A DNA stretch of 64,000 nt from Opitutales bacterium (GCA_050331815.1 JBHJGM010000016.1:65653-129652); one strand, 5' to 3'; shown: positions 27,046-46,286, numbered from the stretch's first letter. Notes: a model not told the origin generated them from the letters alone. Numbers and translations are program-made.

Positions 27046-29871
27046 TTATCCACGCAGCACCACGTACAGGGCGTCCTCCGGCAGCGTCAGCTTCATCCAG
27101 TCTCCCTCGGCTTTCACGAAGTCCGCTTCACCGCGCGGCAGGCCATTAGCATCCAAAACGACTGCTTCCTTCAGGCCGGCGTTGCGTATCCACAAAACCC
27201 CTTCAGCCCGGCGAATCATCCAGGGAGTCTCGCCAGTCTCCATAATGCGCTGAGCCGCCATCGGCTTGCCCTCGATCTTCAAGTTAATCTTCTCGGTCTT
27301 CCACCCGTTAGGCTCCTGATACGTGCCGATCTGAACCAGCACCTTTTTCGAAGCCTTCAGCGGCTGCTCGTCAAGCGCAACGGTCGTGATGGCCGCGTAT
27401 TCATTTTTCACGGACAGCTTCACGTCGCCCAAGTCAATGCCCTCGGCTTTGCCCAGGTAGCCGCTGGCCGCCTGCACGCGCGGCGATTTGATCAGGTACA
27501 GCCCACGCTCGTGGTGTATCTCCACCTCGCCGGTCGAACTGCGCACCATCGCCTTTTCGTGGTCGATGTGCTCGCGATAGCTCTCGTCGATTTCGGTCTC
27601 GGAGGGGTCCGCCCCGTACTCGACGAGGACCGGTCCCACTAGAAAGGCCAGCGGATCGATCGGCGACTCCAGCTTCAAGTCCGGCGCCATCAGCCCCTGG
27701 TCCCGATTCGGGTCAAAGGAAGCGCTTTCGGCCGTCAGGGGCAGGGTCTCATCCCAGATGTTTTCCAGGCTGCGTCGCTCCACGATCACCGGGTCGGCTT
27801 CCTGCAGCATTCCGGTACGGTAGAGCAGGGCCGACGCCGGGAATTGTCCCAGTTGCATCGGCGTCGCGAAGGTCCACTTGGTCAGGCTGCTGTTGCGCCC
27901 GCCCTGCACGGCGGGAATCCACTCGGGCTTGCCGGTGGCGAACCAGAAAAACGCATCCACCCCGTTGACCGACTGCTGCGAGGCTACCACCAGCGGGCCC
28001 TCGCTTTCGTAGCGATTCGGCGGCACCCACAAGCTCTCCGGAATGATGAACGGGTGCCCCCAGGTTTGACGCGCGTTGGTCGGAAACTCCCGCGGGCTGA
28101 GCGCACCCAGCTTGTTGGTGTAAATATGGTCAGGTAGAATCTGCCAGCCGCGCGTACGGCCGGTATGCAGCGCACCAAAGTAGTGGTTCTTCCCGCTGAC
28201 CTCATTGGCCGTGTAGCTCCAGCGCTCGGCGTCGCTCACCAAAACCGGGTCTACTGTTTTCCAGTTGCCGGCGTTGATCAACTGCGGCGCGCCGAGATCC
28301 TCACGCAAAAAGCGCGCGATCTCCGTATTGAAGTTGTACATCGTGCGCGCGAAAAATTCGAGCTGGTCGGCCCGTCGCTTGAGAAAACCAGCGTTGTCGC
28401 CCTTCGACTCCACGCCGCCCTGCGAAAACTCCCACACCAGCATGATGGCTGGTAGACCGTCTTTCCAGTCCTCGCCGCGGAAGTCGTAACGATAGCCGTG
28501 CCAGGCCTCCTTGGTCTTCTCAATCGAGCCGTACTTCTCGATCAGCCAGTCGCGAAACTGCTGCTTCAAAAGTACCTCTGCCTCGCCCCGCACATTCTGA
28601 AAGGTGAAGAAGAGCATGCTGTCCTCGTTCTGCAGCTGAATGACCGCCACCGCTGGCTCGTCCTTCAGAGGAACGCCCGTGTACGGATTCGGACGCGTGT
28701 ACAACGCCCGCAGGTAGCCCTTGTACGCCTCCTGAACTTCCGGCACAAAGAAGACCAGCCCGGCCAGGTTGCCGTTCACCGGGTTGGGAATCTCCCAATT
28801 GGCTTCCCGGCGCGTATGCGATCCCCAGTAAGGCGAGAGGATGGTGTAAATCCCGGCTTCCTTCATCCCCGCCACCAGCTTGAACGCCTCGTCCAGCTCC
28901 TTTTCGTCGACGTCATTCAGTTCAACGGTTTTTCCGTCACGGCGTTCCCGGCGTGAAACCTGAGGTGCCAGATCGCCATGCCAGCGTATCACGTTGACGC
29001 CGCGCTTCGCCAAAAACTCCGCGTGGCGCTTCATCTCGTCGATGGACAGGCTGCGCTGATTGTAATTTGTACCCGCCCAAAACCGCAGCGGCTGCCCGTC
29101 GGCGCGGACAAAGCTGTGGCCATCCTCGCTCAACCGCACGAAGCCGCTCTGGCCGGCCACGTCCTCGTTGAGGTAGCGCAAATCGAGCAGCGACTCCTCT
29201 GAGAGCGGGTCCGTACTCGGCTCAAAGGGCCACATCTTGGACGCATCCTGGGTGATGACATTCGGGTTCGTCTCGCCCGGTCGGTACTGCCCGTTGGGCT
29301 CAAAACCTTCCGTGGTCAGCACGAAGCAATCGATCGCTGCGTGTGGCTTTTCGTTCTCCGGGTCGCCTAGCAAAAAGGTTAACGTGTGCGTGCCGGCATC
29401 CAGATCGTGAGAGCCAAACTTCAGCCAGGCGTAATGCTTGCCGCCGGTACCGCCGTCGAGGGCCAGGTTGCGCTCATCGCGAAAACGCCGCACATACCCC
29501 TCGGTGCGGCGATTGCGGTTGTCCTCCCCGCGCAGTGCCCGCGGCTTGATAACACCGGCTTCCTCCCCGTTGACCGCGTAAGTAAAACCGTTGCCGGCCC
29601 CGCGGACCCACAACGTATACGAACCGCTCTCGGGGATCTCGACCGAGTAAGTCACTCGACCCATCGCCTGGTCCGGCTCCTTGAAGCTCGCGACCTTGGC
29701 ACCTCCCGACAGGCCGTCTTTACGCACGGCTTCCCACCACGCGTTGGAGGTGGTCTCCGCCGAGTCATGGGCCTCGCCTTCGATCCAGAGAAAAGCGCCA
29801 AGACTGGCCGGAGCTAGACCTGCAAGGCAGGCCAACGTTACAGAACAAGAGAGAAGCGTGCGTGGTTTCAT
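27046..29871 (-). CDS. secreted glycoside hydrolase, clan GH-A-like TIM barrel with an N-terminal beta-sandwich module (family not assigned)
   Basis: It has a signal peptide. The N-terminal region is CBM-like (WIEGEAHDS...YTLWVRG). The catalytic-type blocks are RGVNVIRWHG and VIQLQNEDSMLFF, which carries the NE motif. Confidence 0.7.
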   Translation of the reverse strand: MKPRTLLSCSVTLACLAGLAPASLGAFLWIEGEAHDSAETTSNAWWEAVRKDGLSGGAKVASFKEPDQAMGRVTYSVEIPESGSYTLWVRGAGNGFTYAVNGEEAGVIKPRALRGEDNRNRRTEGYVRRFRDERNLALDGGTGGKHYAWLKFGSHDLDAGTHTLTFLLGDPENEKPHAAIDCFVLTTEGFEPNGQYRPGETNPNVITQDASKMWPFEPSTDPLSEESLLDLRYLNEDVAGQSGFVRLSEDGHSFVRADGQPLRFWAGTNYNQRSLSIDEMKRHAEFLAKRGVNVIRWHGDLAPQVSRRERRDGKTVELNDVDEKELDEAFKLVAGMKEAGIYTILSPYWGSHTRREANWEIPNPVNGNLAGLVFFVPEVQEAYKGYLRALYTRPNPYTGVPLKDEPAVAVIQLQNEDSMLFFTFQNVRGEAEVLLKQQFRDWLIEKYGSIEKTKEAWHGYRYDFRGEDWKDGLPAIMLVWEFSQGGVESKGDNAGFLKRRADQLEFFARTMYNFNTEIARFLREDLGAPQLINAGNWKTVDPVLVSDAERWSYTANEVSGKNHYFGALHTGRTRGWQILPDHIYTNKLGALSPREFPTNARQTWGHPFIIPESLWVPPNRYESEGPLVVASQQSVNGVDAFFWFATGKPEWIPAVQGGRNSSLTKWTFATPMQLGQFPASALLYRTGMLQEADPVIVERRSLENIWDETLPLTAESASFDPNRDQGLMAPDLKLESPIDPLAFLVGPVLVEYGADPSETEIDESYREHIDHEKAMVRSSTGEVEIHHERGLYLIKSPRVQAASGYLGKAEGIDLGDVKLSVKNEYAAITTVALDEQPLKASKKVLVQIGTYQEPNGWKTEKINLKIEGKPMAAQRIMETGETPWMIRRAEGVLWIRNAGLKEAVVLDANGLPRGEADFVKAEGDWMKLTLPEDALYVVLRG

Positions 29872-29939: not shown

Positions 29940-30899
29940 TCAGGGCAGGCGGCGTCCGCGTCCGGCCACCCACAGCGCGTACCAATCCTCGCGCGAGAGC
30001 TCCAACCCGGCAGCCTGTGCAGCGTTGCGGATGCGCTCCGGCCCGGTCGTGCCAATCAGCGGCTGAAACCGTCCCGGGTGACGCAACAGCCAGCCCACCA
30101 CCACGGCTTCGTTCGGCACGTCGTACTTCGCGGCCATCTCCGTCACCTTTTCCCGCGCACCCTGGATGCGGTCATTGTCGTCAGGAGATTCCCTGCCAGA
30201 GAGCTTTCCCTTGGCCAGCGGCCCCCACGGCTGCGGCGTGATTCCATGCAGCCGACAGTAATCCAGACAGCCGTGCTGCCGCGTCGGATTCACCTCGTCG
30301 ATGTCACGATTGAAATCCACGCCCTCATCCAACATCTGCGTGTGCAGCAAACTCAACTCCACCTGATTGAAGCGCAGCGGCTGCTTCACAAATTGTCGCA
30401 GCAGGGCCATCTGCCCGGCGGTCTGATTACTCACCCCAAAATGGCGCACCTTGCCCGACTGCTCCAGATCCTCAAAAGCGCGGGCCACTTCCTCTGGCTC
30501 CATCAACGCGTCCGGTCGGTGCAGCAGCAGCGAGTCCAGGTACCCGGTCTCCAGTCGTTTCAGGCAGCCTTCGACAGCCTCCACGATATGCGCATGGCTG
30601 AAATCAAAGCCGAATCCCGGTCGGATGCCCACCTTGCCCTGAATCCAGAGCGACTCCCGTTGCAGCCCCAGGTCCGTGACCGCCGCCGCGAAAACCTCCT
30701 CGCTCCGGCCCCGGCAATAAATATCCGCGTGATCGAAGAAGTTGATTCCGCTCTCCACGGCAGCTTCCAGAGCGGCTCGGCCACGCGGCAGCAGCTCGGC
30801 CACGGGCGTCTGACCATCCCAGGTTTTACCAAAGGTCATGCAGCCCAGCCCGATACGGGAAGGCTTCAACCGGCTTTCGAAGTGCTCCAGAAACTGCAT
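29940..30899 (-). CDS. aldo/keto reductase
   Basis: IGLGCMTFG, INFFDHADIY, HRPD and FGVSN are present. The start is set at MQFLEHF (ATG 30899..30897). Confidence 0.9.
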   Translation of the reverse strand: MQFLEHFESRLKPSRIGLGCMTFGKTWDGQTPVAELLPRGRAALEAAVESGINFFDHADIYCRGRSEEVFAAAVTDLGLQRESLWIQGKVGIRPGFGFDFSHAHIVEAVEGCLKRLETGYLDSLLLHRPDALMEPEEVARAFEDLEQSGKVRHFGVSNQTAGQMALLRQFVKQPLRFNQVELSLLHTQMLDEGVDFNRDIDEVNPTRQHGCLDYCRLHGITPQPWGPLAKGKLSGRESPDDNDRIQGAREKVTEMAAKYDVPNEAVVVGWLLRHPGRFQPLIGTTGPERIRNAAQAAGLELSREDWYALWVAGRGRRLP

Positions 30900-30953
30900 C
30901 CCGCAATGCCAAGGCCCAATCATGAGCCAAGGCAAGGCTGGGTTCCAGCTTCG

Positions 30954-33900
30954 CTATTCGTCATCTACCAGTTCCGTTAGCACGAAGATGAACAGCCGGG
31001 GCACGTCGCCCACCGCCTGCACGCTGCGATACTGCACACGCTCGTAGCCCGGGGCCACGCCCGCCTGACTTTGCGCGGGCTCGGTCACCAGCACCGTGCC
31101 GTTGGCATCGCTGGGTCCGCGCCATGCACTGGCATCGTCGAGCACCTCGGTCACGAACGCCGCTCGCGAGACATTCGCATCGTCGTTGCGACGGATGAAG
31201 GTCGCGTAGAGGAAATTGCCGACCACCTCGATAGTCTCCTCCGGAACGGAATTGAAGTCGTCTGGATCGGAGCCTCCGGCATACTCGCCGGCGTTATTCA
31301 CGCCGTCCATGTCGGGGTCAGCGTCCGGGTCGGCATCCGAACCCGACAGGCCATTGTCGAGCGCCCACTGGTCGTAGCCGGCCGGACCACCAAAGATAGA
31401 CGGCACCACCGAGCTGAAGGTCTCCCCAAAACGAAAGTCATCGGCCTCGGCCTGATTCGCGCCAGTTGAGCCATACCATCCGTACCCACGCAGTAGCAAG
31501 TCGACCGCACCGTTGGTGGTCAATTCGGCATCAGGCGTGGCGGGTGGCTGGAAGGTCACCGGCGGATCGACGTAGAGGCGCAGCGTGTCGCTGGTTGCAC
31601 CGAAATCAATCGCTGCCACAACCAGCTGGACCGTGTTGGTCAGGCGCGCCTTCGAGGACGTGACCACCGTCTGGCTGTTGCTCTCGGCCGCGCTGTCGCG
31701 AGCCGTCAACGACCAGAAGCCATCCGTAACGCTGACCGTGGCCAGGCGTTGGTCCGTCAGCTGCGTCTGGTTTCCGCTCGCGAGCACGAGGATGCGCGTG
31801 TTGGGTGCCCCCGGGGCAAAGCGCGCCAGGAAACTCACCCAAAGGGTCGTGCCAGGCTCGCCGATGGCAGTGCTGTCCGCCGTCGAAACCAGCGGCCCAA
31901 ACGCGCTGACATCCAGGAGCCGGCTGGCGGACCGGAACTGGTCGCCGCCCACCACGTATTGCCCGCCCGAGGTGATCAGGTCCGGGTAGCTGAAGGGGGT
32001 GATGTCCGCGATGACAAAGCCCGGGGAGTTAGCCTGCACCACCCATTCACCGGAGAAACCGGTTCCGGTTGTTTGCGCGTCGAGCACGCCGACGGTGCCG
32101 GACTCAAAATCCTCGAAGGCGATCGGATCTTCCGACGGAGGAGGGGGTGGAGGCGGCGGAGACGGATCCATCACCAACGCGCCGAAACTGTCAGCGAAGA
32201 CAAAGTCATCGGCCGCTGCCTGATTGGACCCGGATCCACCAAACCAGCCCAGGCTGCGGAAAAGCATATCGACCGCGCCATTGGTAGTCAGCGTCGCGTC
32301 GGCGGTCAACGGAGCCGTCATATCCAGCGGCGGATCTACGTAGAGTCGCAGCGTGTCGCTGTCCGTGCCAAACTCAACCGCCACAGCGATCAGTTGCACC
32401 GTGTCCACCAGCGCCGGTTTGGTCGATTCGGCAACGGTGCGGCTGTTCGCGTCGCTAGCGCTGTCGCGCGCGCTCAAGGCCCAGTTCCCATTTTGGATAT
32501 CGATCGTGGCCAGGCGCTGCGACGAATTTTGAGTGGTGCTCCCGTCGGCCAAAACGACTACGCGGCGGTCCGTCACGGCGTTCATCCGGATGAGGAAACG
32601 CATCCAGAGCGTCGTACCGGTTTGGCCAATGGCCGTGTCGTCGGCCGAAGCGATCAGCGGTCCAAAGCCCGACACATCCAACAGGTGCGTCGCGGAGCGG
32701 AAACTGTCGCCGCCCACCACGTACTGGCCGCCTGAAGTGGTCAGGCCCGGATACGTCAGCGGGGTATCGTCTTCGATGGCGAAGCCGGGAGAATTGCTGC
32801 CGTTTTGCACATTCCATTCCTCGGCAAAGCCCACGCCCGTGACTTGTTCGTGCAACAATCCGAGCGCGCCCAGCTCAAAGTCGTCCGAGGCAAAAATTTG
32901 GTCGGACGGTGCGGACAACGCGAAACAGTTAAAGATGCGGTAGGCCGGGTCCCCGTCGGGATCGAGTGCGCGCAGCAGGATGGTTTCCGAAGATGCTGCG
33001 GTCGGCGTGCCGCTGATCGTAATCAGTGGCGCGGTGCCGGAGGTCAGGCTCAGACTCAGTCCTTCCGGCAAAAAGCCGCCGATCTGCTCCAGTTCAATCG
33101 AACCGTCGCCGGTGATTTCAATCTCAACAAAATAAGGCGTACCCACGGTGGCCGGCGGCAGCTCGGTCTCGGTCAGAAATTCGGGCACGGTGCCCACCGG
33201 GTCGTCGATGTGGTTGATGCTTGCCTGCTCCTGCACCCAGTCCAGCAGGAAGCGCCACTTTACCGCGTAGCCGGGCACGAGCGGATCGATTGGTTGGTCA
33301 AGGTACTCCAGGTGACCCCAAAAGCCAAACTTGCCCCAAAGCGACACATCGACAAAGGCATCGTGCGTGCGCAGGCCCAACTGCTTGGCCAGCGTCAGGT
33401 GGATCCGGTACATCTCCGCAATGCGCGGATGCCGATTCAGTGCCGCCATAAAGTCGGTGATGCCGTCGTCGTCCGGACTGCCCAAGTCGAGCGCATCGGT
33501 GGGATTGTTCGGGCCGCCCTCATAGGCCACGATCGGCACGTTGAAATCCAGTGCGATGTTGCGATTCTTCTGACCGAATCCACCACCGGCACCGGTTTGG
33601 TCCACCCCGGAGGTGACCGGCGTCAGGCTCAGCAAACGCCGCTCCCACTCGTCAAAGGCCAGGTTGAGGTTCGCCTCGCTCGGGTCGTCTTCGATCCCTT
33701 CGTCACGCACCCAAAACTGCATGCTCTGGCCAAAATACGTCGTGACAGCCAACACGTCCGGCTGGGTCGCCTGTGTGTAGCCGCCGTCACCTACGATGGT
33801 GTTGCCGGATGTCGCCGTCGGCAGCATCGGACCGTAGGCAAACGCCTCCGTCAGAAATCCGCGTGTGTAATTCTCACCGGTTGTATTTGCGCCCGTCCAG

Positions 33901-35120
33901 GCGCTGGCCACGCGCACCAAGCGATCCGTCCCACCGAAGACCTCTTGAAAAATACTCCAGATCTCGCTCGCACGCCGGGCGTTGAATACCCGTCGGTTGA
34001 TACCCATGGTGTTGGCCTGATCTTGCGCCCAATTGCCCTGCGCGAAGTTGCTGCCGTTACTCCAAATCTCGTTGGAATACTCGATGTAGAGCTTCAGCGA
34101 CGGGTCCAGCGGCGCGTAGTACGGGTCGACCTGCGGACTGGTGTAGGGCGTGCCATTGATGTCGGACCCAAACAGAATCAGATTGGCCAGATTGCGCACG
34201 TAGGTGTCCGTGGCCATGTGGGGTAAGCTGATCCACATATTCGTGTTGGTCTCGTTGCTCAGCGCGACCATGTACTCCCAGGCGACACCGGTGCGACGAT
34301 CGCCGCTGAAACCATTGGCCGGCGGACGACTGTTGATTCTGCCGGCCATGAAAACGTGGTTGGGTGGGCGGCGGTCCGACCAGGTCATCTGGGGGCTGGC
34401 GTTAGTGGCGTTCCAGTCCATAAAGCGGATGGTCGCGATTTCCGGATCGTCCAGACGATCGATGTAGACCGGGTTGAAAATCGGCTCGGGGTCTCCGGGT
34501 GCCGGCTCCAGCGACTGATTCTGCGGATCAGCCGGGTCCGGCGCCCAGACTCGGATTTTTGTTACGGGGTCAGTGGGATCCAGTTCCAGAATCTCGATCC
34601 GCATGCCGAGGCCGCTGCCACTAAAATCGTAGACCCGCCGGCCATCGGTGCGCAGGCCCGTGGCAGGGTCCCCGCCCACGTAGCTACCATTCGTGAATTG
34701 CACGTCACCGCGACCTTCCCAGGTAACCACAATGCGTCCTTCCAGCAGATCGTTGCGGTTGCTGCGCATGTTCTGCCCTGGCTGCGCGTAAAAGGTCTCG
34801 TCCGGATTGAGAAAGAGCGGGTAACCGTTGGCGTCGAGCTGGCTGACCGGCGGCCGGTCCCCGGTGTAGGCGCCATCGATCCGCAGCCGCCAGTCTCGTG
34901 ACTCGATAAAGAGCAGGTTGGCAAAAACCGGCGCATTAAAATAAGTAACGCCACCGGCACCGACGCCCATCTCGGGCAGCGTGCTGGGGTCGAAGGCGGC
35001 CGAGGCCGAAGGCGCTGCGAATCCGCTACTGAGCACGAGCCCAAGGGCGCAAGCACCTAAAGCTTTTGGCGCGCCACGCGTACGCAAGAAAACACGGTTG
35101 AGAAAGAGTTCGGAAAGCAT
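30954..35120 (-). CDS. 1388-aa secreted multidomain protein: unassigned TIM-barrel-like (clan GH-A-like) module + Ig-like domain + 2 LamG/concanavalin-like repeats + Asp-rich Ca-binding-type repeat
   Basis: It has a signal peptide. RFMDWNATNASPQ, YIEYSNEIWSNGSNFAQGNWAQDQAN and VAYEGGPN are candidate catalytic Glu motifs. It also has a poly-Pro linker (PSPPPPPPPPSE) and the Asp-rich stretch DADPDADPDMDGVNNAGEY. It is a paralog of 51454..54528. Confidence 0.8.
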   Translation of the reverse strand: MLSELFLNRVFLRTRGAPKALGACALGLVLSSGFAAPSASAAFDPSTLPEMGVGAGGVTYFNAPVFANLLFIESRDWRLRIDGAYTGDRPPVSQLDANGYPLFLNPDETFYAQPGQNMRSNRNDLLEGRIVVTWEGRGDVQFTNGSYVGGDPATGLRTDGRRVYDFSGSGLGMRIEILELDPTDPVTKIRVWAPDPADPQNQSLEPAPGDPEPIFNPVYIDRLDDPEIATIRFMDWNATNASPQMTWSDRRPPNHVFMAGRINSRPPANGFSGDRRTGVAWEYMVALSNETNTNMWISLPHMATDTYVRNLANLILFGSDINGTPYTSPQVDPYYAPLDPSLKLYIEYSNEIWSNGSNFAQGNWAQDQANTMGINRRVFNARRASEIWSIFQEVFGGTDRLVRVASAWTGANTTGENYTRGFLTEAFAYGPMLPTATSGNTIVGDGGYTQATQPDVLAVTTYFGQSMQFWVRDEGIEDDPSEANLNLAFDEWERRLLSLTPVTSGVDQTGAGGGFGQKNRNIALDFNVPIVAYEGGPNNPTDALDLGSPDDDGITDFMAALNRHPRIAEMYRIHLTLAKQLGLRTHDAFVDVSLWGKFGFWGHLEYLDQPIDPLVPGYAVKWRFLLDWVQEQASINHIDDPVGTVPEFLTETELPPATVGTPYFVEIEITGDGSIELEQIGGFLPEGLSLSLTSGTAPLITISGTPTAASSETILLRALDPDGDPAYRIFNCFALSAPSDQIFASDDFELGALGLLHEQVTGVGFAEEWNVQNGSNSPGFAIEDDTPLTYPGLTTSGGQYVVGGDSFRSATHLLDVSGFGPLIASADDTAIGQTGTTLWMRFLIRMNAVTDRRVVVLADGSTTQNSSQRLATIDIQNGNWALSARDSASDANSRTVAESTKPALVDTVQLIAVAVEFGTDSDTLRLYVDPPLDMTAPLTADATLTTNGAVDMLFRSLGWFGGSGSNQAAADDFVFADSFGALVMDPSPPPPPPPPSEDPIAFEDFESGTVGVLDAQTTGTGFSGEWVVQANSPGFVIADITPFSYPDLITSGGQYVVGGDQFRSASRLLDVSAFGPLVSTADSTAIGEPGTTLWVSFLARFAPGAPNTRILVLASGNQTQLTDQRLATVSVTDGFWSLTARDSAAESNSQTVVTSSKARLTNTVQLVVAAIDFGATSDTLRLYVDPPVTFQPPATPDAELTTNGAVDLLLRGYGWYGSTGANQAEADDFRFGETFSSVVPSIFGGPAGYDQWALDNGLSGSDADPDADPDMDGVNNAGEYAGGSDPDDFNSVPEETIEVVGNFLYATFIRRNDDANVSRAAFVTEVLDDASAWRGPSDANGTVLVTEPAQSQAGVAPGYERVQYRSVQAVGDVPRLFIFVLTELVDDE
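31404..32114 (-). repeat. internal coding repeat, unit B (second LamG-like domain)
   Basis: EDFESGTVGVLDAQTTGTGFSGEW...LRLYVDPP...EADDFRFGETFSSVV is colinear with unit A. The similarity is also visible at the DNA level, for example GACGTAGAGGCGCAGCGTGTCGCTG versus TACGTAGAGTCGCAGCGTGTCGCTG. Confidence 0.85.
32172..32885 (-). repeat. internal coding repeat, unit A (first LamG-like domain)
   Basis: DDFELGALGLLHEQVTGVGFAEEW...LRLYVDPP...AADDFVFADSFGALV. It is separated from unit B by the poly-Pro linker. Confidence 0.85.
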
Positions 35121-35587
35121 CGAGCAAGCCTGGGTTAGGGTGTTTCTGAGTGAACTTGAACATGTATCACGTCACCCACGCTGGCAACACCCGCAAAGTT
35201 TCAGCACCTTCAAAGTCGGCATCAACGTAACTTATGAGTGACGCTTCCTCGGGCGTCACCCAGTACTTATAAATCACAAAACCGCCGGCCCGCGGCGAGC
35301 AGCCAAACCGCCAATTTAGGCAGTAGAAATCCACGAGCAAAACGCGCAAATGCGTCCCTGCGAGAGCAGTCAAGGGTCATTACGATTTAAAAAGAGAGCG
35401 TTAGCGGAGAGATTTCCGTCGAATGAATTACATACAGCAGAAAAACGCCGGGATTGCCCCCGAATCTGCAGTTGTTAAGTCAAGAATCTGTCGACAGCAT
35501 CCGACTTTCCCCAGCACCGATTTTTCGCTAAATCAGCCGGCCTCATCTCGCTGATTAGACCTGCTGACACCACACCGACCTGACGCC

Positions 35588-36343
35588 ATGTTCCTCAACT
35601 ACCGGGAAGTCTTTCAAAAACGCGGGGCCGCCTACCATGAAGCCATGCAACGCTGGCCCAAGGCCCGTGGCAACGAACTCCAAACCATCATCGACTGGGC
35701 CCAGCCTCGGCCCGAAGACCTGGTGCTGGATCTGCCCAGCGGCGGCGGATATCTGCGACCGCTTCTGCCCGAAGGCGCGCGGCTGATCGCCATCGATGAG
35801 TCGGAAAACTTCCTGCACTCCGGCCCGCATGCCGGCAGCGTCGAAGCGCGCTGCGCGCCGCTGGACGCCACGGGCCTGCCTGCAAACCACGCCAATGTGG
35901 CCATCAGCCTTGCCGGGCTGCACCACGTACCGGACCGTGTGACCGTCTTTGCCGAAGTCTTCCGTGTGCTCAAACCGGGGGGCGTCTTTTGTGTCGCTGA
36001 TGCGCTCGCTGGCGGCGCAGTCGCGCGCTTTCTGGATGGTTTTATCGACCAGCACAATTCATCCGGACACGAGGGCCGCTACCTCACGCAGGCCTCGTCC
36101 GAGGAACTTCGCCGAGCCGGCTTTGAGGTCGAGCGTGCCGAATCCGTGGACTATCCCTGGGTGTTCCCCGACCGCGAGGCTCTTGGCGGCTACTGCAAGC
36201 TGCTGTTCGGCCTCGATCTCGCCGGCGACGAGGCTTCCGTGGCAGAAGGCATCGCCGAGTGGCTCCCCGTCCACGAACGCGACGGCCAAACCCACCTGGA
36301 CTGGAGCCTCTACTTCCTGCGCGCCCGTAAACCGGCGGCTTGA
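35588..36343 (+). CDS. class I SAM-dependent methyltransferase
   Basis: Motif I is VLDLPSGGGY. The post-I and later motifs include LHHVPD and LKPGGVFCV. Confidence 0.85.
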   Translation: MFLNYREVFQKRGAAYHEAMQRWPKARGNELQTIIDWAQPRPEDLVLDLPSGGGYLRPLLPEGARLIAIDESENFLHSGPHAGSVEARCAPLDATGLPANHANVAISLAGLHHVPDRVTVFAEVFRVLKPGGVFCVADALAGGAVARFLDGFIDQHNSSGHEGRYLTQASSEELRRAGFEVERAESVDYPWVFPDREALGGYCKLLFGLDLAGDEASVAEGIAEWLPVHERDGQTHLDWSLYFLRARKPAA

Positions 36344-36350
36344 GGCATCC

Positions 36351-37580
36351 CTACGGCTGACCCTTGCCGAGCAGACCCAGATCCAGCCCCGCTTTTTCCG
36401 CGTAAGCGATGTTCTTCGTAGCCAGATCGACCCGCTGCTTGACGCACCCGGCCGAGGTGAGCGGATCCTCTGGGGTATTTTTCACGTAATCGACCAGCTT
36501 CTCGACAGTGGTGGTCGCCACATGACTACGCGTGTCCGAGGAGGCGTAGTAGATAAATACTTCACCGCTGTCGCGCGTGATCACACCGTTGGTGAACACC
36601 ACGTTGGAGACATCGCCGATGCGCTCTTCGCCCATCGGTGCGATCAGGTGGCCGCCCGGGCGATGCGTCTGCTTCCAGGGCTCGTCGAGCGCGCACATAA
36701 ATGCATAAACCACGTAGCGCAGCCCCGCCGCGCAATTGCGCACACCATGGGCGATGTGCAGCCAGCCCTCGTCCGTCTTGATCGGCGCAGCGCCAGCCCC
36801 GTTCTTCACTTCCTTCATCGTGTGGTAAATCCTTTCGTCGACGATGTGCTCGCCCATGACCTCGGCTCCGTCGATTTTCTCCGAAAACCCGAAGCCAATG
36901 CCGCCTCCGGAACCGGTCGTGGTGAAGCCATCCTGGGGACGGGTGTAAAAGGCGTATTTGCCGTCGATCAGCTCTGGCAACAGGACCGCGTTGCGCTGCT
37001 GCGGCGAGGAGGTTTTCAAATCCGGCAGGCGGTCCCAATGGACCAGGTCCTTGGTGCGGGCGATGCCGCACTGGGCCATGGCGGCAGAGGTATCGCTGGC
37101 GGGCGCATCGGGGTCTTTGCGTTCGGTGCAAAAGATGCCGTAAATCCAGCCGTCGGCATGCTGAACGAGCCGCATGTCGTACACGTTGACGTCCGGGTCG
37201 TCCGTCTCCGGCATGACAACCGGAAAATCCCAAAAGCGAAATCCGTCGACCCCGTTGTCACTCTCGGCCACCGCGAAGAAGCTCTTCCGGTCAACGCCTT
37301 CGACCCGCACCATCATCAGGTATTTGCCGTCGTGGTATATCGCGCCCGGATTGAACGCCGCATTCATGCCCATGCGCTCGAGCAGGTGCGGGTTGCGCTC
37401 CGGGTCAAAGTCGTAGCACCAGTGCGGCGGCACGGATTCATGAGTCAGTACCGGGTGCTGATAGTACGTAAGCACCCCGTTGAGCGACCGCGCTTCGTCA
37501 ACCGGGTTATTGCGGCCCAGCACGGACTCGTAGTGGGCGTAGATGGCTTTCAGGCGGGCGTCGTAATCGGAAGCAGGCAT
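36351..37580 (-). CDS. GH130 family beta-mannoside phosphorylase (4-O-beta-D-mannosyl-D-glucose phosphorylase-like)
   Basis: It has no signal peptide. [57 protein letters not shown] and IYYASSDTR are typical of five-bladed GH130 enzymes. Confidence 0.8.
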
Positions 37581-39493: not shown

Positions 39494-39595
39494 ACCGGCA
39501 TCGTCCACACCTGCCTCGCTTACGAAAAGGAAAATCGCACCCACCACTTAAGCCCGAGCGTGACAGCCCGAACCGTGAGCCCCATTCTGATTCTT

Positions 39596-40981
39596 ATGTC
39601 CAGTGCGGCCCCTCCCAACATCCTGTTTCTCACCTGGCATGATGCCGGACGCTGGTTCAACTGCTACGGCGTCGACACCGTAGACACCCCCGGCATCGAC
39701 CGCATCGCCGCCGAGGGCTGCCGTTTCACCCAGGCCCATTCGGCCTGCGCGATCTGCTCGCCTTCGCGCGCTGCCATGATGACCGGGCGCACCTGCCAGG
39801 CCGCCGGGGTCATGAGCCTCACCAACAACGTTTTTTCCAACCGCATCCATCCCTCCATTCGACACCTGGCCCGTCTGCTCAAGGAGGATCACGGTTACCG
39901 CACCGCGCTCTTTGGCGTGCAGCACGAGGCCGCGCACGAACATATCTGGCGGGTGCAGCAATTTGACGAGGCGCACCGTACCGACCCGTGGCCCACGGCC
40001 GATGTCTCCTGCGACGCGCTCATCGACTGGCTCGAGCAGCGAAAGACTGACACCGCACCCTGGTACGCGCAGATCGGATTCTTCGAAGGTCACCTGGGCG
40101 CGTTTTACAACGCACAGACGAATCCCGCGTATCCACAAGAGGACTACACCGAGAAAGGCCTGCATCTGCCGCCTTACCTGGCCGATGACGCACCCGGTCG
40201 CGCGACCGTGGCCAACCTCCAGGGCCTGCTGACCCGCGCCGGACGCGCCTTCGACCGCGTACTCGACGCCCTCAAGGCCAATGGCCAGGAGTCTAACACC
40301 CTGGTAGTGGTCTGCGTCGACCACGGCGTCGGGCTCGCCCGGGCCAAGACAACCTGCTACGACCCCGGCACTGCGGTCGGCTGGCTCATGCGCCTGCCCG
40401 GACGAGTCCCCACCAACCACACGGTCGAAAATCTGACCACGCACATCGACGTGTTTCCAACCGTCCTCGAACTCGCCGGCCATCCCGTCCCCGACGCCAC
40501 TCAGGGCCTCAGCTTTGCCCCGCACGCCTGCGGCCAGGCCGACCACGAACAAAACAAGGCCATCTTTGCCCACATGGTGGAAACCATCCGCTCCGTCCGC
40601 ACCCAGCGCTGGAAGCTGATCCGCAACTTCCAACCCTCCAATCGCGGCAAACTCTTCCCGGCCCGCGCGGGCTGGCTCTGGCGCTCCCGTCCTGATGAAA
40701 GACCCCCGGCCACCGATCCTAAAAACGCGCCTCACCTCGAACTGTACGATCTCCAGAAGGCTCCCGACGAGCACCAGAACCTCGCCAGCGACCCACAACA
40801 CCACGCCACCCTCGCGGAACTCGATGCCCGCCTCTGGGCCTTTTTATACGACGAAGGCGACCCGCTGATCCATCAGCCGGTGCGCACCCAGTACGACGTC
40901 GAGACCCGCGCCTCGCTCGAGGCTTTTTGTAAAAAAACAAGTCGAGTGCTTACCCAAGCCATCGGCCCGCGAGCATCGTAG
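39596..40981 (+). CDS. Cys-type sulfatase, no signal peptide
   Basis: PNILFLTWHD, CSPSRAAMMTGR and VCVDHG are present. The start is set at MSSAAPPN (ATG 39596). Confidence 0.9.
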   Translation: MSSAAPPNILFLTWHDAGRWFNCYGVDTVDTPGIDRIAAEGCRFTQAHSACAICSPSRAAMMTGRTCQAAGVMSLTNNVFSNRIHPSIRHLARLLKEDHGYRTALFGVQHEAAHEHIWRVQQFDEAHRTDPWPTADVSCDALIDWLEQRKTDTAPWYAQIGFFEGHLGAFYNAQTNPAYPQEDYTEKGLHLPPYLADDAPGRATVANLQGLLTRAGRAFDRVLDALKANGQESNTLVVVCVDHGVGLARAKTTCYDPGTAVGWLMRLPGRVPTNHTVENLTTHIDVFPTVLELAGHPVPDATQGLSFAPHACGQADHEQNKAIFAHMVETIRSVRTQRWKLIRNFQPSNRGKLFPARAGWLWRSRPDERPPATDPKNAPHLELYDLQKAPDEHQNLASDPQHHATLAELDARLWAFLYDEGDPLIHQPVRTQYDVETRASLEAFCKKTSRVLTQAIGPRAS

Positions 40982-41204: not shown

Positions 41205-41262
41205 CCAAAAACCAAGTGCGCAGCACTTGAGTCCTCCCGCGGTCACGCGGGTCCGCCGACCA
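41205..41262 (-). terminator. 58-bp two-hairpin terminator-like module, copy 2 (overlaps the stop codon of 41243..42295)
   Basis: Same 58 bp as copy 1. The TGA stop of the upstream gene sits in the loop of the first hairpin. The second hairpin is followed by T5 on the minus strand. Confidence 0.6.
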
Positions 41263-42295
41263 TGTTTTTGACCAGGTTGAAAAAGCCCAGCTTGCGCTCA
41301 GTCGTGGGCATCCACTGCACGGGCGGGCATTGATAGCCATCGAGGTAATTACTTTGGCCCGGGTCAAAATAGCCCCAACTGGCATACTCGCTGACCGCCG
41401 CCACAAAATTGTTCATCGGTTGGTCGAAATCGAAGTGGTCGTCCTCGTTGAAAACGATGGGCATCGGTCGGTAGCCTTCGACCGCGCGCGTCTCGCGCAC
41501 CATCGCGGCAATCCGGTTCGGGTCGCCCACGTCGTTACCATGCAGCAGCAGATAATCCGAGGCCTTCACGACGTTGGGCAGCGGCACGGTTCCCCCGCCG
41601 TAGCTGGTGCTGACCCACAGCCGTCGTCCGTCTGCAGCCTGCGTCGCCTTTACGCGCTCGATCAGTTCGTGCACACGCGGCGGCTGCAAAATCGGGTGCG
41701 TGTAGCGCACGTTGCACTCGTTGTTCACCTCCAGCAGCAGGTTTTGATAGCCGGTCTGCAGGAGCCACTCCACGGCGTTGTCGACCGCGCGGATAACCGC
41801 CGCCTCGTCCGTCAGCCGGTGGTCCTGCCCAAAGTAAAACAGCCCCAGATTCACGACGAGGCCCAGCCGGTCGGCTTCCGCCAGAATCTTCGAAAGCCGC
41901 GCCAGGTACTCCGGTCGCAACGAGCCGTCGGCCTCAAAAGTGGAGTTATGCCAGGGTTGCTCCCGGCTGTACCCCTGCGGGCTGCCTCCCTGCAGATTGA
42001 AGCAGAGGCAGCGCAGCCCGTAGTCCTTCCAGACTGGCATCGCTTCGATAAACTCGCGCGTATTGCGGTCGGGGTCCCACTCGCCGGTGTCCGGGTAATT
42101 CCACCGCGAGCGCGTCTCGGGATTCAAATCGTCAAAAATCGCCTGCACCACCCGTGCGTTCAGCAGGAGACCCTCAATCTTGTGGCCGTTCCATTCGCGG
42201 CCCGGGTAGGTGGGCGTTCCGTTCAGGTAAAAAGCGTCGTCGACAATTGAGATTTCCGTCTGGGGCATGTCGGGCAGCCTGTCGGTTTGGGCCAT
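41243..42295 (-). CDS. cytoplasmic clan GH-A-like (cellulase-like TIM barrel) protein, family unassigned
   Basis: It has no signal peptide. LLLEVNNECN (NE motif) and PIVFNEDDH are candidate catalytic glutamates. The start is uncertain: GTG 42304, ATG 42295 or ATG 42268. Confidence 0.6.
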   Translation of the reverse strand: MAQTDRLPDMPQTEISIVDDAFYLNGTPTYPGREWNGHKIEGLLLNARVVQAIFDDLNPETRSRWNYPDTGEWDPDRNTREFIEAMPVWKDYGLRCLCFNLQGGSPQGYSREQPWHNSTFEADGSLRPEYLARLSKILAEADRLGLVVNLGLFYFGQDHRLTDEAAVIRAVDNAVEWLLQTGYQNLLLEVNNECNVRYTHPILQPPRVHELIERVKATQAADGRRLWVSTSYGGGTVPLPNVVKASDYLLLHGNDVGDPNRIAAMVRETRAVEGYRPMPIVFNEDDHFDFDQPMNNFVAAVSEYASWGYFDPGQSNYLDGYQCPPVQWMPTTERKLGFFNLVKNMVGGPA

Positions 42296-42327
42296 GGTTT
42301 GCACGCCTCTTCCCTGCCGACGTATCT

Positions 42328-42412: not shown

Positions 42413-43063
42413 TCAGGCCTTCTTGCGGCGCAACAGTACGACCGCCGTCAGCAGCCCGATACCCACCAGACCGTAGGTCGAGGGCTCGGGAACGGCCGTG
42501 ATCTGCCCGCGGATGAGGCCCGCCGGATCGTTCTCACCGTGCAGGTTGAAGTAGAACTCCGTGTCCGCGCCCTGGGGCACGCTCAGGAAGTCCTGCGCGA
42601 TGTCGTTGATCGACTCGTTGGTCGGATCGCCACCGTCAAACGAACCGAAAACGGTGGTGGTGTTGTCGCTGTTGAGCACGATCTGCGCTTCGGGATCCTG
42701 GTCGGGGCCGAAGATACCCAGCGAGATCGGGCCGTTGGTGCCGCGTTCGCCGCGGTGGATGTGCAGCACCACGTCGTCGCGCACGATCTCCGAACCGCCA
42801 TTGTCCAGACCTTCGCCCGGAAACGCGTTGTCGAAGTTCACCGACGCGTCGAACACCAGTTCATAGTGCAACACGAAGCCCTCGGCTTCGGAACCGCTGA
42901 GAAACAGCGAACCGAATCCGGTGCCCGTTGAGTTGGTCTGCCCGCCCGGAGCGACTTCCTGCGCCGAGTCCAGAAAGGCCTGGAAACTCTGCGCCGTCAG
43001 CACCGACGGAACAACTAGAAGCGCTCCTAAGGTAACGCTTTGGAGGGTCTTTAACTTACTCAT
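42413..43063 (-). CDS. CHRD domain protein with a PEP-CTERM sorting signal
   Basis: It has a signal peptide. CHRD-like blocks are present (LDSAQEVAP...GTGFGSL; LHIHRGERGTNGPI; NLHGENDPAGLIRGQI). The C-terminal VPEPSTYGLVGIGLLTAVVLLRRKKA is a PEP-CTERM anchor. Confidence 0.8.
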   Translation of the reverse strand: MSKLKTLQSVTLGALLVVPSVLTAQSFQAFLDSAQEVAPGGQTNSTGTGFGSLFLSGSEAEGFVLHYELVFDASVNFDNAFPGEGLDNGGSEIVRDDVVLHIHRGERGTNGPISLGIFGPDQDPEAQIVLNSDNTTTVFGSFDGGDPTNESINDIAQDFLSVPQGADTEFYFNLHGENDPAGLIRGQITAVPEPSTYGLVGIGLLTAVVLLRRKKA

Positions 43064-43283
43064 GGTTGTGAGGTGTTTCTTGTTTCAAGCGCCACGATGA
43101 ATTCACAGCGCGACTACAGACCATAAGCACACCGCGCCCGCACACCCAGACGAAACAATCCGGCAACCTGCGGACAAGGATTTCCCTGACCCCAGCTCGG
43201 GGATAATCCCCTAAGAAACCTTCAGGATTGCGCGATTGTGAGATTAAGGCCCAGTGTGTTGATAAGAATCGCTCATTTTGCAC

Positions 43284-44639
43284 ATGCCCGAAAAGCCCCT
43301 CAATATCCTCTACTTTGTCGTACACGACCTCGGCAAACATCTCGGTTGCTACAACGGCGGACTCATCCACTCGCCCCGTCTCGACGCCTTCGCCCGCGAG
43401 TCCTTCCGCTTTCACAACGCCTTCACCAACGCCGCCTGCTGTAGCCCCTCGCGCGGCTGCGCCATGACGGGCCAGTACTCCCACGTCAACGGCCAGATTG
43501 GGCTCGCGCACATGGGCTGGTCCCTCCCGCAGTCCGCCAAAACCATTGTCGATTACTTCAACGAGGCCGGGCGCACCACGGTCCACTGCGGACTCAATCA
43601 CGAACGCCACGCCGGCGAAAATCACTACCAGCACGACTTCGAGGAACACTGGGACGACTGGGACGCCGCCAACGCCGTAACCAAGGCCCTCACCTGGCTC
43701 GAAAAACGCCCGGCGGATGCGGACCCCTTTTACCTCAACATCGGCACCCACGATGTGCACGCCTCGCGCTTCACCAAGGAACCCGCCGCCTATGCCCCCT
43801 ACAAGCCCGCGCCGGAAGACGTCTTCGTACCGCCCTGGCTACACGACACCCCGCAAATCCGGGCCTTTCTGGCCAACTTCCAAAGCGCCATCGGCTACCT
43901 CGATGTACAGTTCGGGCGGCTTCTGGACGGCCTCGACCGCCTGGCCTTGCGCGAGACGACCCTCGTCGTCTTTACCACCGCCCACGGCATCGCCGTGCCC
44001 CCGCGCCTTGCGAAGGGGACCTGCTACGACCGCGGCATGGAGATTGCGCTGCTGGCCCGCATGCCCGGCCCAAGCGCGCCCGGCAGTGACGTCCATCACC
44101 TCATCCAGAATATCGACTTCACGCCCACCTTCCTCGAATTGACCGGCGCGCCCGTCCCCGATTCCATCAACGGACGCTCCTTCGCCCCGCTCCTGCAAGG
44201 GCAGCCGTATCAGCCGCACGAATACATTTTTGTCGAGCGCAACTGCCACGGCGAACACAACCCCGAAGGCCCGGGCTTTCGCGACGTTTACGATCCCGTG
44301 CGCTCGGTCCGCACAAGCGACTTCCACCTGATCCGCCACTGCCACCCGGAACTGAAGGACCGCCCCCTGCGCCGCCACGAAGCCCCGCCGCCGCCGGACG
44401 CCAACGAGCGCACTTGGCCGACTTCCGGCGTCCCCCGCGCCGAAACGGAACTCTACTACATCGCGCAGGATCCCCTCGAGCTCTTCGATGTGGTGAACCA
44501 GCCCGAGTACGCTCCCGTGCGTGACCGCCTTTCCACGCTCATCGACACGTGGATGCGCGACACCGACGACCTCGCGCTGAGTAGCACCGCGCCTACGCCC
44601 CCCGAAAAGCCCGGCTGGGGCCCCTGGGAAAATCTTTGA
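43284..44639 (+). CDS. Cys-type sulfatase, no signal peptide
   Basis: LNILYFVVHDLG and CCSPSRGCAMTGQY (C-x-P-x-R) are present. The ATG at 43284 is preferred over the TTG at 43278. Confidence 0.9.
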   Translation: MPEKPLNILYFVVHDLGKHLGCYNGGLIHSPRLDAFARESFRFHNAFTNAACCSPSRGCAMTGQYSHVNGQIGLAHMGWSLPQSAKTIVDYFNEAGRTTVHCGLNHERHAGENHYQHDFEEHWDDWDAANAVTKALTWLEKRPADADPFYLNIGTHDVHASRFTKEPAAYAPYKPAPEDVFVPPWLHDTPQIRAFLANFQSAIGYLDVQFGRLLDGLDRLALRETTLVVFTTAHGIAVPPRLAKGTCYDRGMEIALLARMPGPSAPGSDVHHLIQNIDFTPTFLELTGAPVPDSINGRSFAPLLQGQPYQPHEYIFVERNCHGEHNPEGPGFRDVYDPVRSVRTSDFHLIRHCHPELKDRPLRRHEAPPPPDANERTWPTSGVPRAETELYYIAQDPLELFDVVNQPEYAPVRDRLSTLIDTWMRDTDDLALSSTAPTPPEKPGWGPWENL

Positions 44640-44713
44640 TCGCCGCATTTTCGGTCGCGAACCCATGCTTGCGGGCCGGCTTCCCAGCCCTAAGGTAAAG
44701 CCACCGGCCAGTC

Positions 44714-45427
44714 ATGTCTCAAGACGACGAACCCAACGTCCGCACGCAAGCGCCCCGGCGCAGCGTCACGCGCTCCTCGCTCTTTAGCGACAGCGCCCCC
44801 ACCGACGACTCGGGCGGCATCCTCAGCGGCGCACACCCCCTGGTCTGGCTCGCCCTGCTGATTGCTCTGGTCGCCTGCGGGCTGGCGGTCTTCCTGGGCT
44901 CCGGGCCCAGCGATCCGGAAACCCCACTGGCCACCCAGGCCGAGGTCGACTCCCTCAACCAGCAGATCGAAGCACTCCGCGCCGACCTGGGCGACCGCTC
45001 CCAGCGGCTCGACCAGCTCGTCACTCTCATCCAGGCCATCGACCAGAAGTCCCTGCCCACCCTGCGCACCGACATCCGCAACCTCCAGGGTGCCTTCCAA
45101 CTCACCGACAAGGACCTGCTCAAGCTCAAGCGCGCCGTCGAGGAGATGCAGGCCGCCGTGCCCGCCGCCCCCGTCGATAATTTCGCAGGCTCGGACCCGC
45201 CACCGGCCGCCACGCCCGTGGCTCCCGTCGACGCCGGGCGCGCCGCTCCGCCACCCCCACCACCGGCCCCCGTCGCGACCTGCAGCTACACGATTCGCTC
45301 GGGCGACACCCTCTGGCATGTCGCCAGCCGGCTGGGCATCCCTTTAAGAGATCTCCTCGACCTCAACCCGGAACTCGACCCCGACCGCCTCCAGCCCGGC
45401 ATGGTCATCAAGGTCCCCGCCAACTAG
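44714..45427 (+). CDS. membrane-anchored coiled-coil protein with a C-terminal LysM domain
   Basis: It has one TM segment (LVWLALLIALVACGLAVFL), a coiled-coil-like middle and a Pro-rich linker. The LysM block is YTIRSGDTLWHVASRLGIPLRDLLDLNP. Confidence 0.8.
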   Translation: MSQDDEPNVRTQAPRRSVTRSSLFSDSAPTDDSGGILSGAHPLVWLALLIALVACGLAVFLGSGPSDPETPLATQAEVDSLNQQIEALRADLGDRSQRLDQLVTLIQAIDQKSLPTLRTDIRNLQGAFQLTDKDLLKLKRAVEEMQAAVPAAPVDNFAGSDPPPAATPVAPVDAGRAAPPPPPPAPVATCSYTIRSGDTLWHVASRLGIPLRDLLDLNPELDPDRLQPGMVIKVPAN

Positions 45428-45436
45428 ACACTGCCG

Positions 45437-46009
45437 ATGGCCCAACCGCCTGCGCTCTGGGAAAACCTGGGCGAAAAACTCCACGCTCCCTGCTACGTCT
45501 ACGACGTGTACACCCGGCGTGTCCGCCATCCCGAATCCGGCGAAGAGGCCGAGTTCTACATCCAAAAAGCGCCCGACTGGGTGCAGGCCATCGCCCTGAC
45601 GCCGGACCGGCAACTGGTCCTCGCCCACCAGTATCGCCACGCCGCGCACGCCCTCAGCTGGGAATTTCCCGGGGGCGTGGTCGATCCCGGCGAAGCCCCC
45701 GAAGCCGCAGCCGTGCGCGAGCTGCGCGAGGAAACCGGCTACACCGGCCAACCGCCTAAGTACCTCGGCAAGGTCATGCCCAACCCAGCCCTCATCGACA
45801 ACTGGTCCCATTTCGTCCTGATCGAGGAGTGCCACCTCACCGACACCCTCGAGTTTGATGCCCACGAGGAGATCGTTGCCCGCACCGCCCCCCTCGACGA
45901 AGTGCGCCAGATGATCCTCGCTGGCGAAGTTCACCACTCCCTCATGGTCGCCGCCTTCTTCTTCCTCGAAAAACACCTCCAAGCGTCCGGTACACTTAAG
46001 AACCCGTAG
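45437..46009 (+). CDS. NUDIX hydrolase (ADP-ribose pyrophosphatase-like)
   Basis: The Nudix box GGVVDPGEAPEAAAVRELREETGY is present. Confidence 0.85.
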   Translation: MAQPPALWENLGEKLHAPCYVYDVYTRRVRHPESGEEAEFYIQKAPDWVQAIALTPDRQLVLAHQYRHAAHALSWEFPGGVVDPGEAPEAAAVRELREETGYTGQPPKYLGKVMPNPALIDNWSHFVLIEECHLTDTLEFDAHEEIVARTAPLDEVRQMILAGEVHHSLMVAAFFFLEKHLQASGTLKNP

Positions 46010-46286
46010 AAAAATCAAATGGTTTCCAGCGGTCGCCAAACACGAGGCGGTGTAGTGGCCGTAGCCAAAAAATCGAAAGCGCTTCTTTGCTACGCGCTGT
46101 AAGCTGGGGAAACCGCTCGACAGTGCAGCCGTGCCCCGCGCATTCTCCTGACCTTTCACACAGCGCGCCACCCCAGCCATCCCGGCGGATTACCACCATC
46201 CACCACGCATCCCGCACGACATACTACGTACTATTTATTAGCACCAAGCCCTAAGTATAAGTACCAGGCACCAAGTACTTAACCCC

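Follow-up and report, generated by a model that had tools for sequence, protein, structure and literature searches.

The stretch of DNA analysed here (the window) comprises 64,000 nucleotides from an Opitutales bacterium (GCA_050331815.1 JBHJGM010000016.1:65653-129652) and carries, at 30954..35120 on the minus strand, a gene for a protein of 1388 amino acids (aa) which we consider to be probably a modular glycoside hydrolase (GH) exported by the Sec pathway. Its core would combine a beta-sandwich with a barrel bearing the catalytic machinery of clan GH-A, the core would belong to a large family that has no name, and the laminin G (LamG)-like modules that follow it would probably bind glycans. 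The open reading frame (ORF) is a complete coding sequence with an ATG start when read from the DNA, as an earlier reading of the sequence alone (the first-pass annotation) had proposed, and all the motifs quoted there were located in it. The database match of the protein is NCBI MGF1485153.1, the exact protein from an uncultured Opitutales metagenome-assembled genome (MAG), which the NCBI annotation pipeline was unable to name (‘hypothetical protein ACFBZ8_12405 [Opitutales bacterium]’).

Fold and predicted catalytic residues of the N-terminal region

An AlphaFold2 (AF2) model of aa 40-690, built from a 54-sequence alignment, was of good quality (predicted local distance difference test, pLDDT, 86.6; predicted template modelling score, pTM, 0.91) and contains an all-beta domain and, after it, eight units in which strand and helix alternate. 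The first-pass annotation had taken the N-terminal ~640 aa as a single module with the motifs of a clan GH-A (beta/alpha)8 glycosidase; the motifs stood up to analysis but the single module did not, the model giving instead a beta-sandwich at aa ~42-215 and a barrel at aa ~225-640. The sandwich (34476..34997, minus strand) is jelly-roll-like, with strands assigned by DSSP at model residues 12-153 and pLDDT mostly 80-97. It is part of a conserved core of ~550 aa and is also spanned by compact relatives of ~515-600 aa. The (beta/alpha)8 barrel (33201..34448, minus strand) was delimited from the AF2 model and Foldseek, and its strands 1 to 8 lie at aa 230-232, 261-263, 294-298, 344-347, 401-406, 456-463, 530-537 and 583-588 of the model.

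A Foldseek search with this model against the PDB (entries to April 2026) gave 21 matches at E<=1e-3, every one of them a clan GH-A enzyme, as were the top 25 matches. The families represented among the top matches are GH51, GH5, GH26, GH79, GH10, GH1 and GH2, the best examples being the GH51 arabinofuranosidase 2vrq (E=8e-6), a GH5 beta-mannosidase and GH5 mannanases, a GH26 mannanase, the GH79 heparanase and a GH10 xylanase. The fold class of the modelled module is clear, and no solved structure in the PDB to that date is closely related to it.

Conservation was counted in a hidden Markov model alignment of 389 sequences that takes in both deep branches of the family, down to ~28% identity. 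The predicted general acid/base is the glutamate of an Asn350-Glu351 pair (34068..34073, minus strand), placed by the AF2 strand position and by conservation just past strand 4, whose last residue it trails by 3-4 residues (strand 4 being aa 344-347). This pair lies in the motif YIEYSNEIWSNG (aa 345-356), in which N350 is kept in 382/382 relatives, E351 in 381/382 and E347 again in 382/382. The predicted nucleophile, Glu534 (33519..33521, minus strand), lies within strand 7 (IVAYEGGP; AF2 strand at model residues 491-498), in the motif VAYEGGPN (aa 531-538), and is kept in all 371 of the 371 relatives aligned there, with the adjoining Y533 in 369/372. Both glutamates had been put forward from their motifs in the first-pass annotation, the first as an acid/base after Asn and the second as a nucleophile, and both fall at the positions usual in clan GH-A. 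In the alignment these two candidates are conserved far beyond chance expectation. Among other residues of the module R232 (380/380), Y462 (371/372), W353 (383/383) and E282 (379/383) are kept to a similar degree, and N289 and W296 are each kept in at least 379 of ~380 relatives. A block that had been singled out as distinctive, RFMDWNATNASPQMTWSDRR (aa 232-251; 34368..34427, minus strand), is present at the end of barrel strand 1 and in the next loop, with R232 as its first residue and W247 kept in 365/382 relatives; the spacing originally given (RFMDW-x3-TNASPQ-x2-WSDRR) needs correction to RFMDW-x2-TNASPQ-x2-WSDRR.

The module shares with enzymes of clan GH-A (GH51 2vrq; GH5 4nrr, 6tn6 and 8gf3; GH26; GH79; GH10) the (beta/alpha)8 barrel, an Asn-Glu pair past strand 4, a Glu in strand 7 with conserved Arg, His, Tyr and Trp residues around, and, among the relatives of the 1388-aa protein, modular fusion to carbohydrate-binding modules (CBMs). 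The strand-4 motif has the form x-E-x-x-N-E-hydrophobic, which we take to be in the style of GH5. Unlike the families of the clan, it has no sequence similarity to them that could be detected (Pfam at E<=1 on 58 members, phmmer and hmmsearch with PDB sequences, hhalign against a GH5), and it differs further in the obligatory N-terminal beta-sandwich, in long insertions after strands 5-7 with 183 residues between the two glutamates, and in the distinctive blocks RFMDW..TNASPQ..WSDRR and WGK(F/Y)GxWGHLEY. We therefore regard the module as a candidate new GH-A family whose members would work like the retaining glycosidases of that clan. In the mechanism that we propose the barrel would act by double displacement to cleave a glycosidic bond, E534 being the nucleophile and E351 the general acid/base. 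The predicted mechanism is thus a retaining one, for a glycoside with an equatorial linkage (beta-D- or its stereochemical equivalent). N350 would presumably contact the 2-OH of the −1 sugar, and Y462, R232 and H301 presumably position the nucleophile, as in other GH-A enzymes.

It could be argued that the barrel is inactive, or is not a glycosidase at all, and that the protein serves mainly as a surface adhesin or lectin built of immunoglobulin (Ig)-like, LamG and thrombospondin type 3 (TSP3)-like modules. Modules of the adhesin type do account for aa 650-1388, the larger part of the protein, its Ig domain resembles modules of the adhesin SraP, and proteins with Laminin_G_3 domains flank one homologue. 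However, the complete GH-A catalytic constellation is near-absolutely conserved over hundreds of sequences at 28-80% identity, which argues for a maintained active site, and the compact relatives of ~515 aa consist of sandwich and barrel only. We consider this explanation very improbable and retain that of an active glycosidase.

Size, spread and placement of the family

The author of the first-pass annotation had been unable to place the module in any CAZy family, and this was borne out for Pfam, NCBIfam and the PDB, none of which claims it. Over aa 1-700 neither Pfam nor NCBIfam gave a match, a phmmer search of all PDB sequences gave 0 matches, and two family profiles run against PDB sequences matched the Ig-like domain and left the catalytic module without a match. 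Nor did any GH model in Pfam reach E<=1 in 48 aligned sequences (the module from the window and 47 relatives) or in 10 remote relatives.

A word-indexed search returned 391 relatives. Nearly all of them bear the label ‘hypothetical protein’, and in none does Pfam recognize a domain over the module. An exhaustive phmmer search of 1.84 billion cluster representatives returned 4,528 at E<=1e-3, 2,438 at E<=1e-10 and 181 at E<=1e-30; the 4,528 family representatives stand for clusters at 50% identity, metagenome-wide. Among species-representative genomes there are 426 family loci, the best 80 of which are all in MAGs, from Verrucomicrobiota, Sumerlaeota, Acidobacteriota (Thermoanaerobaculia and Vicinamibacteria), Planctomycetota, Myxococcota and a few Gammaproteobacteria. 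A remote branch of compact proteins of ~515 aa, mostly from Planctomycetota and made up of sandwich and barrel alone, adds more than 1,600 further members, all labelled ‘hypothetical’ apart from one with the uninformative UniRef name ‘Cellulose-binding protein’. Judged by these comparisons of sequence, the catalytic core is a very large family, unnamed in the libraries searched and distinct from the GH families in Pfam, NCBIfam and the PDB.

The module might nevertheless already belong to an established CAZy family that has neither a Pfam or NCBIfam model nor a structure (a structureless family of clan GH-A, or one of approximately GH175-GH200), and the protein would then be an ordinary carbohydrate-active enzyme (CAZyme). 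The comparison covers the families represented in Pfam, NCBIfam and the PDB; the CAZy numbering has reached at least GH195, so that these libraries lack many families of recent date; and its 4,528 cluster representatives would make the family a natural choice for curation in CAZy. On the other side, the relatives all carry the label ‘hypothetical protein’, including those annotated by the NCBI Prokaryotic Genome Annotation Pipeline in 2023-2025, with the exceptions of ‘Cellulose-binding protein’ and ‘thrombospondin type 3 repeat-containing protein’, the latter of which refers to an accessory module only. There is no close PDB entry up to April 2026. In the literature on the newest GH families (GH174 and GH187-GH196) we found nothing resembling the catalytic module, GH188, GH189, GH191-195, GH174 and GH187 all differing from it in fold or relatives, and the motif strings YSNEIW, RFMDW and AYEGGP occurred in none of the papers listed by a literature search. 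Membership of an existing family is in our view unlikely.

Several observations do weigh against the protein being a clan GH-A glycosidase with glycan-targeting modules. The fold matches described above are distant (template modelling, TM, scores of 0.3-0.4, none above 0.40, at 10-13% identity and a root-mean-square deviation of 7-14 Å), and no signal was obtained when hhalign was used to compare the family profile with a true GH5 sequence of the Pfam Cellulase family (probability 0.3%). No family member with an enzymatic characterization was found. The AF2 model of aa 690-1388, which contains the presumed targeting end, is only moderate (pLDDT 62.6), and distant homologues lie mostly in uninformative contexts: when the flanking ORFs of ~80 loci were clustered the maximum recurrence of any neighbour was 8. 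Even so we hold the glycoside hydrolase reading to be the probable one. A fuller version of it seems to us evenly poised between right and wrong, namely that the core is a new, unclassified family of clan GH-A, very large (4,528 clusters) and spread across Verrucomicrobiota, Planctomycetota, Acidobacteriota, Sumerlaeota and Myxococcota, that its specificity may target an abundant environmental glycan without an assigned enzyme family, and that the targeting end of the Opitutales protein is a swappable cassette, its tandem LamG modules having been exchanged by recombination between genomes that are otherwise ~25% divergent.

Putative export signal, accessory modules and the history of the LamG units

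A putative Sec signal peptide was recognized in a hydropathy scan at aa 1-41 (34998..35120, minus strand), with basic residues R9, R13, R15 and K19, a hydrophobic core at aa 20-34 and A-S-A ahead of A42. The orthologue P0001, which is 79% identical, has a matching junction (...SASA/AFDP). With such a typical signal the protein is presumably secreted via Sec.

Behind the barrel lies an Ig-like spacer domain, probably of the He_PIG or cadherin-like type (aa ~650-742; 32895..33173, minus strand), recognized with Pfam and the family profile. Its presence had been noted in the first-pass annotation and is supported: He_PIG (PF05345) matches the 1388-aa protein at E=0.0027 (18.6 bits, under the cut-off of 24), the homologous domain in relatives matches at E=8.7e-14, and a search with the family profile brings up SraP modules of the cadherin-like type (4m03) at E=3.8e-13. 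Like the He_PIG and cadherin-like modules of Staphylococcus aureus SraP, to which it is related at the profile level, the domain would act as a spacer between functional modules; unlike SraP, the 1388-aa protein has a single Ig copy, and its Pfam score is below the gathering threshold.

Two tandem LamG/concanavalin-like units follow, unit 1 at aa 746-983 (32172..32885, minus strand) and unit 2 at aa 1003-1239 (31404..32114, minus strand), with exactly the coordinates first proposed and with a fold supported by AF2 and Foldseek. Within the model of aa 690-1388 the cores of the LamG units have a pLDDT of 70-87 and the C-terminal tail one of 83-91. The best structural matches are to tandem modules (laminin LG4-5, 5ik8, E=4.3e-10; neurexin L2-L3, 2e-8), others being tandem galectins, tetanus-toxin Hc, CBM40 and the thrombospondin N-terminal domain (TSPN), and single-domain LG, CBM40 and TSPN matches have TM scores (TMt) of 0.4-0.52. 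The units thus resemble laminin-G and concanavalin A-like modules (laminin alpha2 LG4-5, neurexin LNS, CBM40, the thrombospondin N-terminal domain) in being beta-sandwiches and in being arranged in tandem, and differ from laminin-G modules in that neither ~237-aa unit is matched by Laminin_G, Laminin_G_2 or Laminin_G_3 of Pfam. A Pfam match of DPBB_PEX6 (aa 831-923 and 1090-1180; 26.7 bits against a cut-off of 22) was rejected as a repeat-driven false positive because it passes only by summing two sub-threshold scores (18.6 and 17.4 bits) and because the fold seen in the model and with Foldseek is a sandwich of the LamG type.

Among 120 relatives the ~237-aa unit is present only in the 1388-aa gene, its two Opitutales orthologues and one further protein, P0002. 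A word-indexed search with unit 1 (32172..32894) returned nothing, yet this index also misses the P0001 unit, which is 61% identical and scores 302 bits by local phmmer. As the units hold the place behind the catalytic domain where paralogues carry CBM6 and CBM35, they probably act as glycan-binding modules. They are separated by a poly-proline linker, MDPSPPPPPPPPSEDPIAF (aa 984-1002; 32115..32171, minus strand, read from the sequence), within which the motif PSPPPPPPPPSE that had been described as the linker was found at aa 986-997. Together the Ig spacer, the rigid proline-rich rod and the two LamG modules would give multivalent targeting to glycans.

An Asp-rich segment, SGSDADPDADPDMDGVNNAGEYAGGSD (aa 1259-1285; 31266..31346, minus strand), was recognized by motif only. 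The first-pass annotation had described DADPDADPDMDG (aa 1262-1273, within this segment) as a repeat of the calcium-binding type; the segment is certainly there, and the repeat type holds at the level of the motif only, with no match of TSP3_bac (PF18884) at E<=10 in the 149-aa tail of the protein. TSP3_bac was matched in 2 relatives (best E 2.6e-4), and there is a weak NCBIfam match to Amuc_1099 at aa 1251-1294. The DxDxDxDG motif is TSP type-3-like, and the segment may bind Ca2+. The protein ends in an all-beta tail domain, a beta-sandwich in the model (aa 1286-1388; 30957..31265, minus strand), with AF2 strands at aa ~1295-1384 and pLDDT 83-91, which is found in 16/120 relatives by local phmmer, is common to many verrucomicrobial members of ~1050-1130 aa, and has no match in the PDB or Pfam. 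The Asp-rich segment and the tail may bind Ca2+ or hold the enzyme at the cell surface.

Because the LamG units could be aligned as DNA, the first-pass annotation had put forward a relatively recent duplication. They are indeed alignable, with 63% DNA identity over their full length, but the dating is not borne out. The units are 58% identical as protein, and their third-codon positions are 44.5% identical compared with 33% expected from composition, so that synonymous sites are near saturation. The L007 orthologue, whose catalytic module is 82% identical to that in the window, has both LamG units and the matching linker; the 79% orthologue (P0001, locus L008) has a single unit, and this unit, unit 1 and unit 2 are mutually equidistant at 58-61% identity. 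Taken together these results indicate that the duplication is not recent, and its age appears to be roughly equal to the split among these Opitutales lineages.

Comparison of the gene with that at L007 gave a different picture for the double unit as a whole. Most of the gene has 71-83% DNA identity, with third positions mostly 42-67% identical (74-76% over aa 251-350), and the surrounding synteny block has 72-76% identity. Between 31400..32960 of the window and L007:10030..11600, that is codons ~720-1250 with both LamG units and the linker, DNA identity is 89-97% and third positions are 72-94% identical, and from aa 751 of this cassette the figures are 91-97% and 76-94%. As the high identity at synonymous sites is confined to ~1.6 kb, it suggests recombination, by which the double-LamG cassette was recently exchanged with a related lineage, rather than selection.

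Genomic context and significance of the family

The window contains a paralogue of the catalytic family, a protein of 1024 aa encoded at 51454..54528 on the plus strand, 16 kb from the 1388-aa gene (BLASTP E=2e-160, 40% identity over 720 aa). It shares the FSNEIW and AYEGGP motifs and the Ig domain, and at its C-terminus (aa 901-1020) it has matches to CBM_6 (E=1.4e-12) and CBM_35 (E=4.1e-7) in place of the LamG units; its exact sequence was absent from the protein collection searched. Other accessory modules found on relatives are CBM6, CBM35, CBM13/RicinB, dockerin, fn3, He_PIG and tails of the type IX secretion system (T9SS).

Around the closest orthologues the gene order is GH130, 1388-aa gene, aldo/keto reductase, ~940-aa protein, ADP-ribosylglycohydrolase. 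In the window the GH130-family gene is at 36351..37580 (minus strand; Pfam Glyco_hydro_130, E=6.9e-21) and is a conserved upstream neighbour in three Opitutales genomes; the co-oriented aldo/keto reductase gene is downstream at 29940..30935 (minus strand) and is conserved with the orthologues; and a protein of 941 aa without a Pfam or NCBIfam match is encoded at 27046..29871 (minus strand), downstream in all three Opitutales genomes. We considered this 941-aa protein as a paralogue of the 1388-aa protein and rejected the idea (BLASTP E=0.87), it being GH5-like instead; hhalign of the family profile against it also gave no signal. As it aligns to GH5 mannanases (8gf3, E=3.3e-4; 9m20) as far as the acid/base NE motif, it is probably another unannotated GH-A enzyme.

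A class-I S-adenosylmethionine methyltransferase gene (35588..36343, plus strand) lies between GH130 and the 1388-aa gene, in the same order at L007. It is missing at the locus of the 79% orthologue (L001/L008), where GH130 is followed after 190 bp directly by the orthologue, and the block of GH130 and methyltransferase has 85% identity to L007, which exceeds the baseline of 72-76%. The divergent intergenic spacer between the methyltransferase and 1388-aa genes (35121..35587, 467 bp) was distinguished by composition and is, as had been remarked in the first-pass annotation, richer in AT (51-54% GC compared with 60-65% in the flanking genes). Promoters are presumably located in it; a scan of the spacer gave no Rfam match and no match to a sigma-70-type promoter, and terminator-like hairpins occur in it at the frequency expected by chance.

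Elsewhere in the window there is a CHRD-domain protein with a PEP-CTERM sorting signal at 42413..43063 (minus strand), and a Wza-like polysaccharide export protein (Poly_export/SLBB) at 49051..49809 (plus strand), ~1.6 kb upstream of the 1024-aa paralogue. A run of co-oriented ORFs adjoins a sulfatase gene, at 39548..40804, 41243..42304 and 43056..46180 (all minus strand), coding for proteins of 418, 353, 234, 275, 209 and 278 aa; none of these six has a Pfam match, and the two that were scanned with NCBIfam had none there either.

One member of the family is from a cultured organism, the planctomycete Anaerobaca lacustris (WP_349243152.1, a compact protein of 513 aa; L087:5249..17542, JASCXX010000002.1). 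A GH78 rhamnosidase gene lies upstream of its gene at a distance of 23 bp. The two are followed, in a largely co-directional cluster, by genes for a GFO/IDH/MocA oxidoreductase, for an unknown product, for a GH120-like beta-helix protein carrying CBM6 and for a GH97, and a GH5 gene adjoins on the opposite strand. Over the ~80 loci the recurrent neighbours were histidine kinase (8), LacI (8), sulfatase (7), ABC ATPase (6) and aldo/keto reductase (4), and neither these loci nor six further annotated ones gave a neighbour that recurred in more than 8. Since these neighbours are only generic, no substrate was inferred from them. A beta-mannoside-type glycan is a weak guess, made because of the GH130 and GH5-mannanase-like neighbours in the window and the many mannanases among the fold matches.

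Some of these neighbourhoods could be read in another way, with the enzyme remodelling the exopolysaccharide or surface glycan of its own cell (or acting as a transglycosylase), in the manner of the PslG-type GH-A enzymes of exopolysaccharide loci, instead of serving the breakdown of exogenous polysaccharides. The homologue at L005 has secretin and GT4 genes directly upstream, that at L006 has Wzy_C, glycosyltransferase and Bac_transf genes within 6-8 kb, the 1024-aa paralogue in the window lies close to the Poly_export/SLBB gene, and the conserved C-terminal tail could keep the enzyme at the cell surface. However, polysaccharide-synthesis and export neighbours are not recurrent across the ~80 loci, and the genes on either side of the closest orthologues (GH130, sulfatase, aldo/keto reductase, GH5-like protein) are of the catabolic type. 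The fusions to CBM6, CBM35, CBM13 and dockerin, the LacI-type neighbours and the cluster with GH78, GH97 and GH5 are likewise typical of catabolic CAZymes. Remodelling of the cell's own glycan appears improbable to us, and the modular glycoside hydrolase described above is the reading that we prefer.

If that reading is correct, thousands of ‘hypothetical proteins’ from soil, freshwater, marine and engineered-system metagenomes could be annotated as one GH family, and a gap would be closed in models of carbon cycling by bacteria of the Planctomycetota-Verrucomicrobiota-Chlamydiota (PVC) group, Acidobacteriota and Sumerlaeota, whose ability to degrade polysaccharides is now inferred from known CAZy families only. 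New GH families appear regularly, and this candidate is unusually large and phylogenetically broad in poorly understood phyla. The apparent exchange of the LamG cassette by recombination would be an example of the shuffling of CAZyme targeting modules among related genomes. The family is also a practical one to work with, having a compact core of ~515 aa, clear predicted catalytic residues and a member in cultured A. lacustris, and one member, expressed and assayed, would be enough to found the family and to show a specificity.

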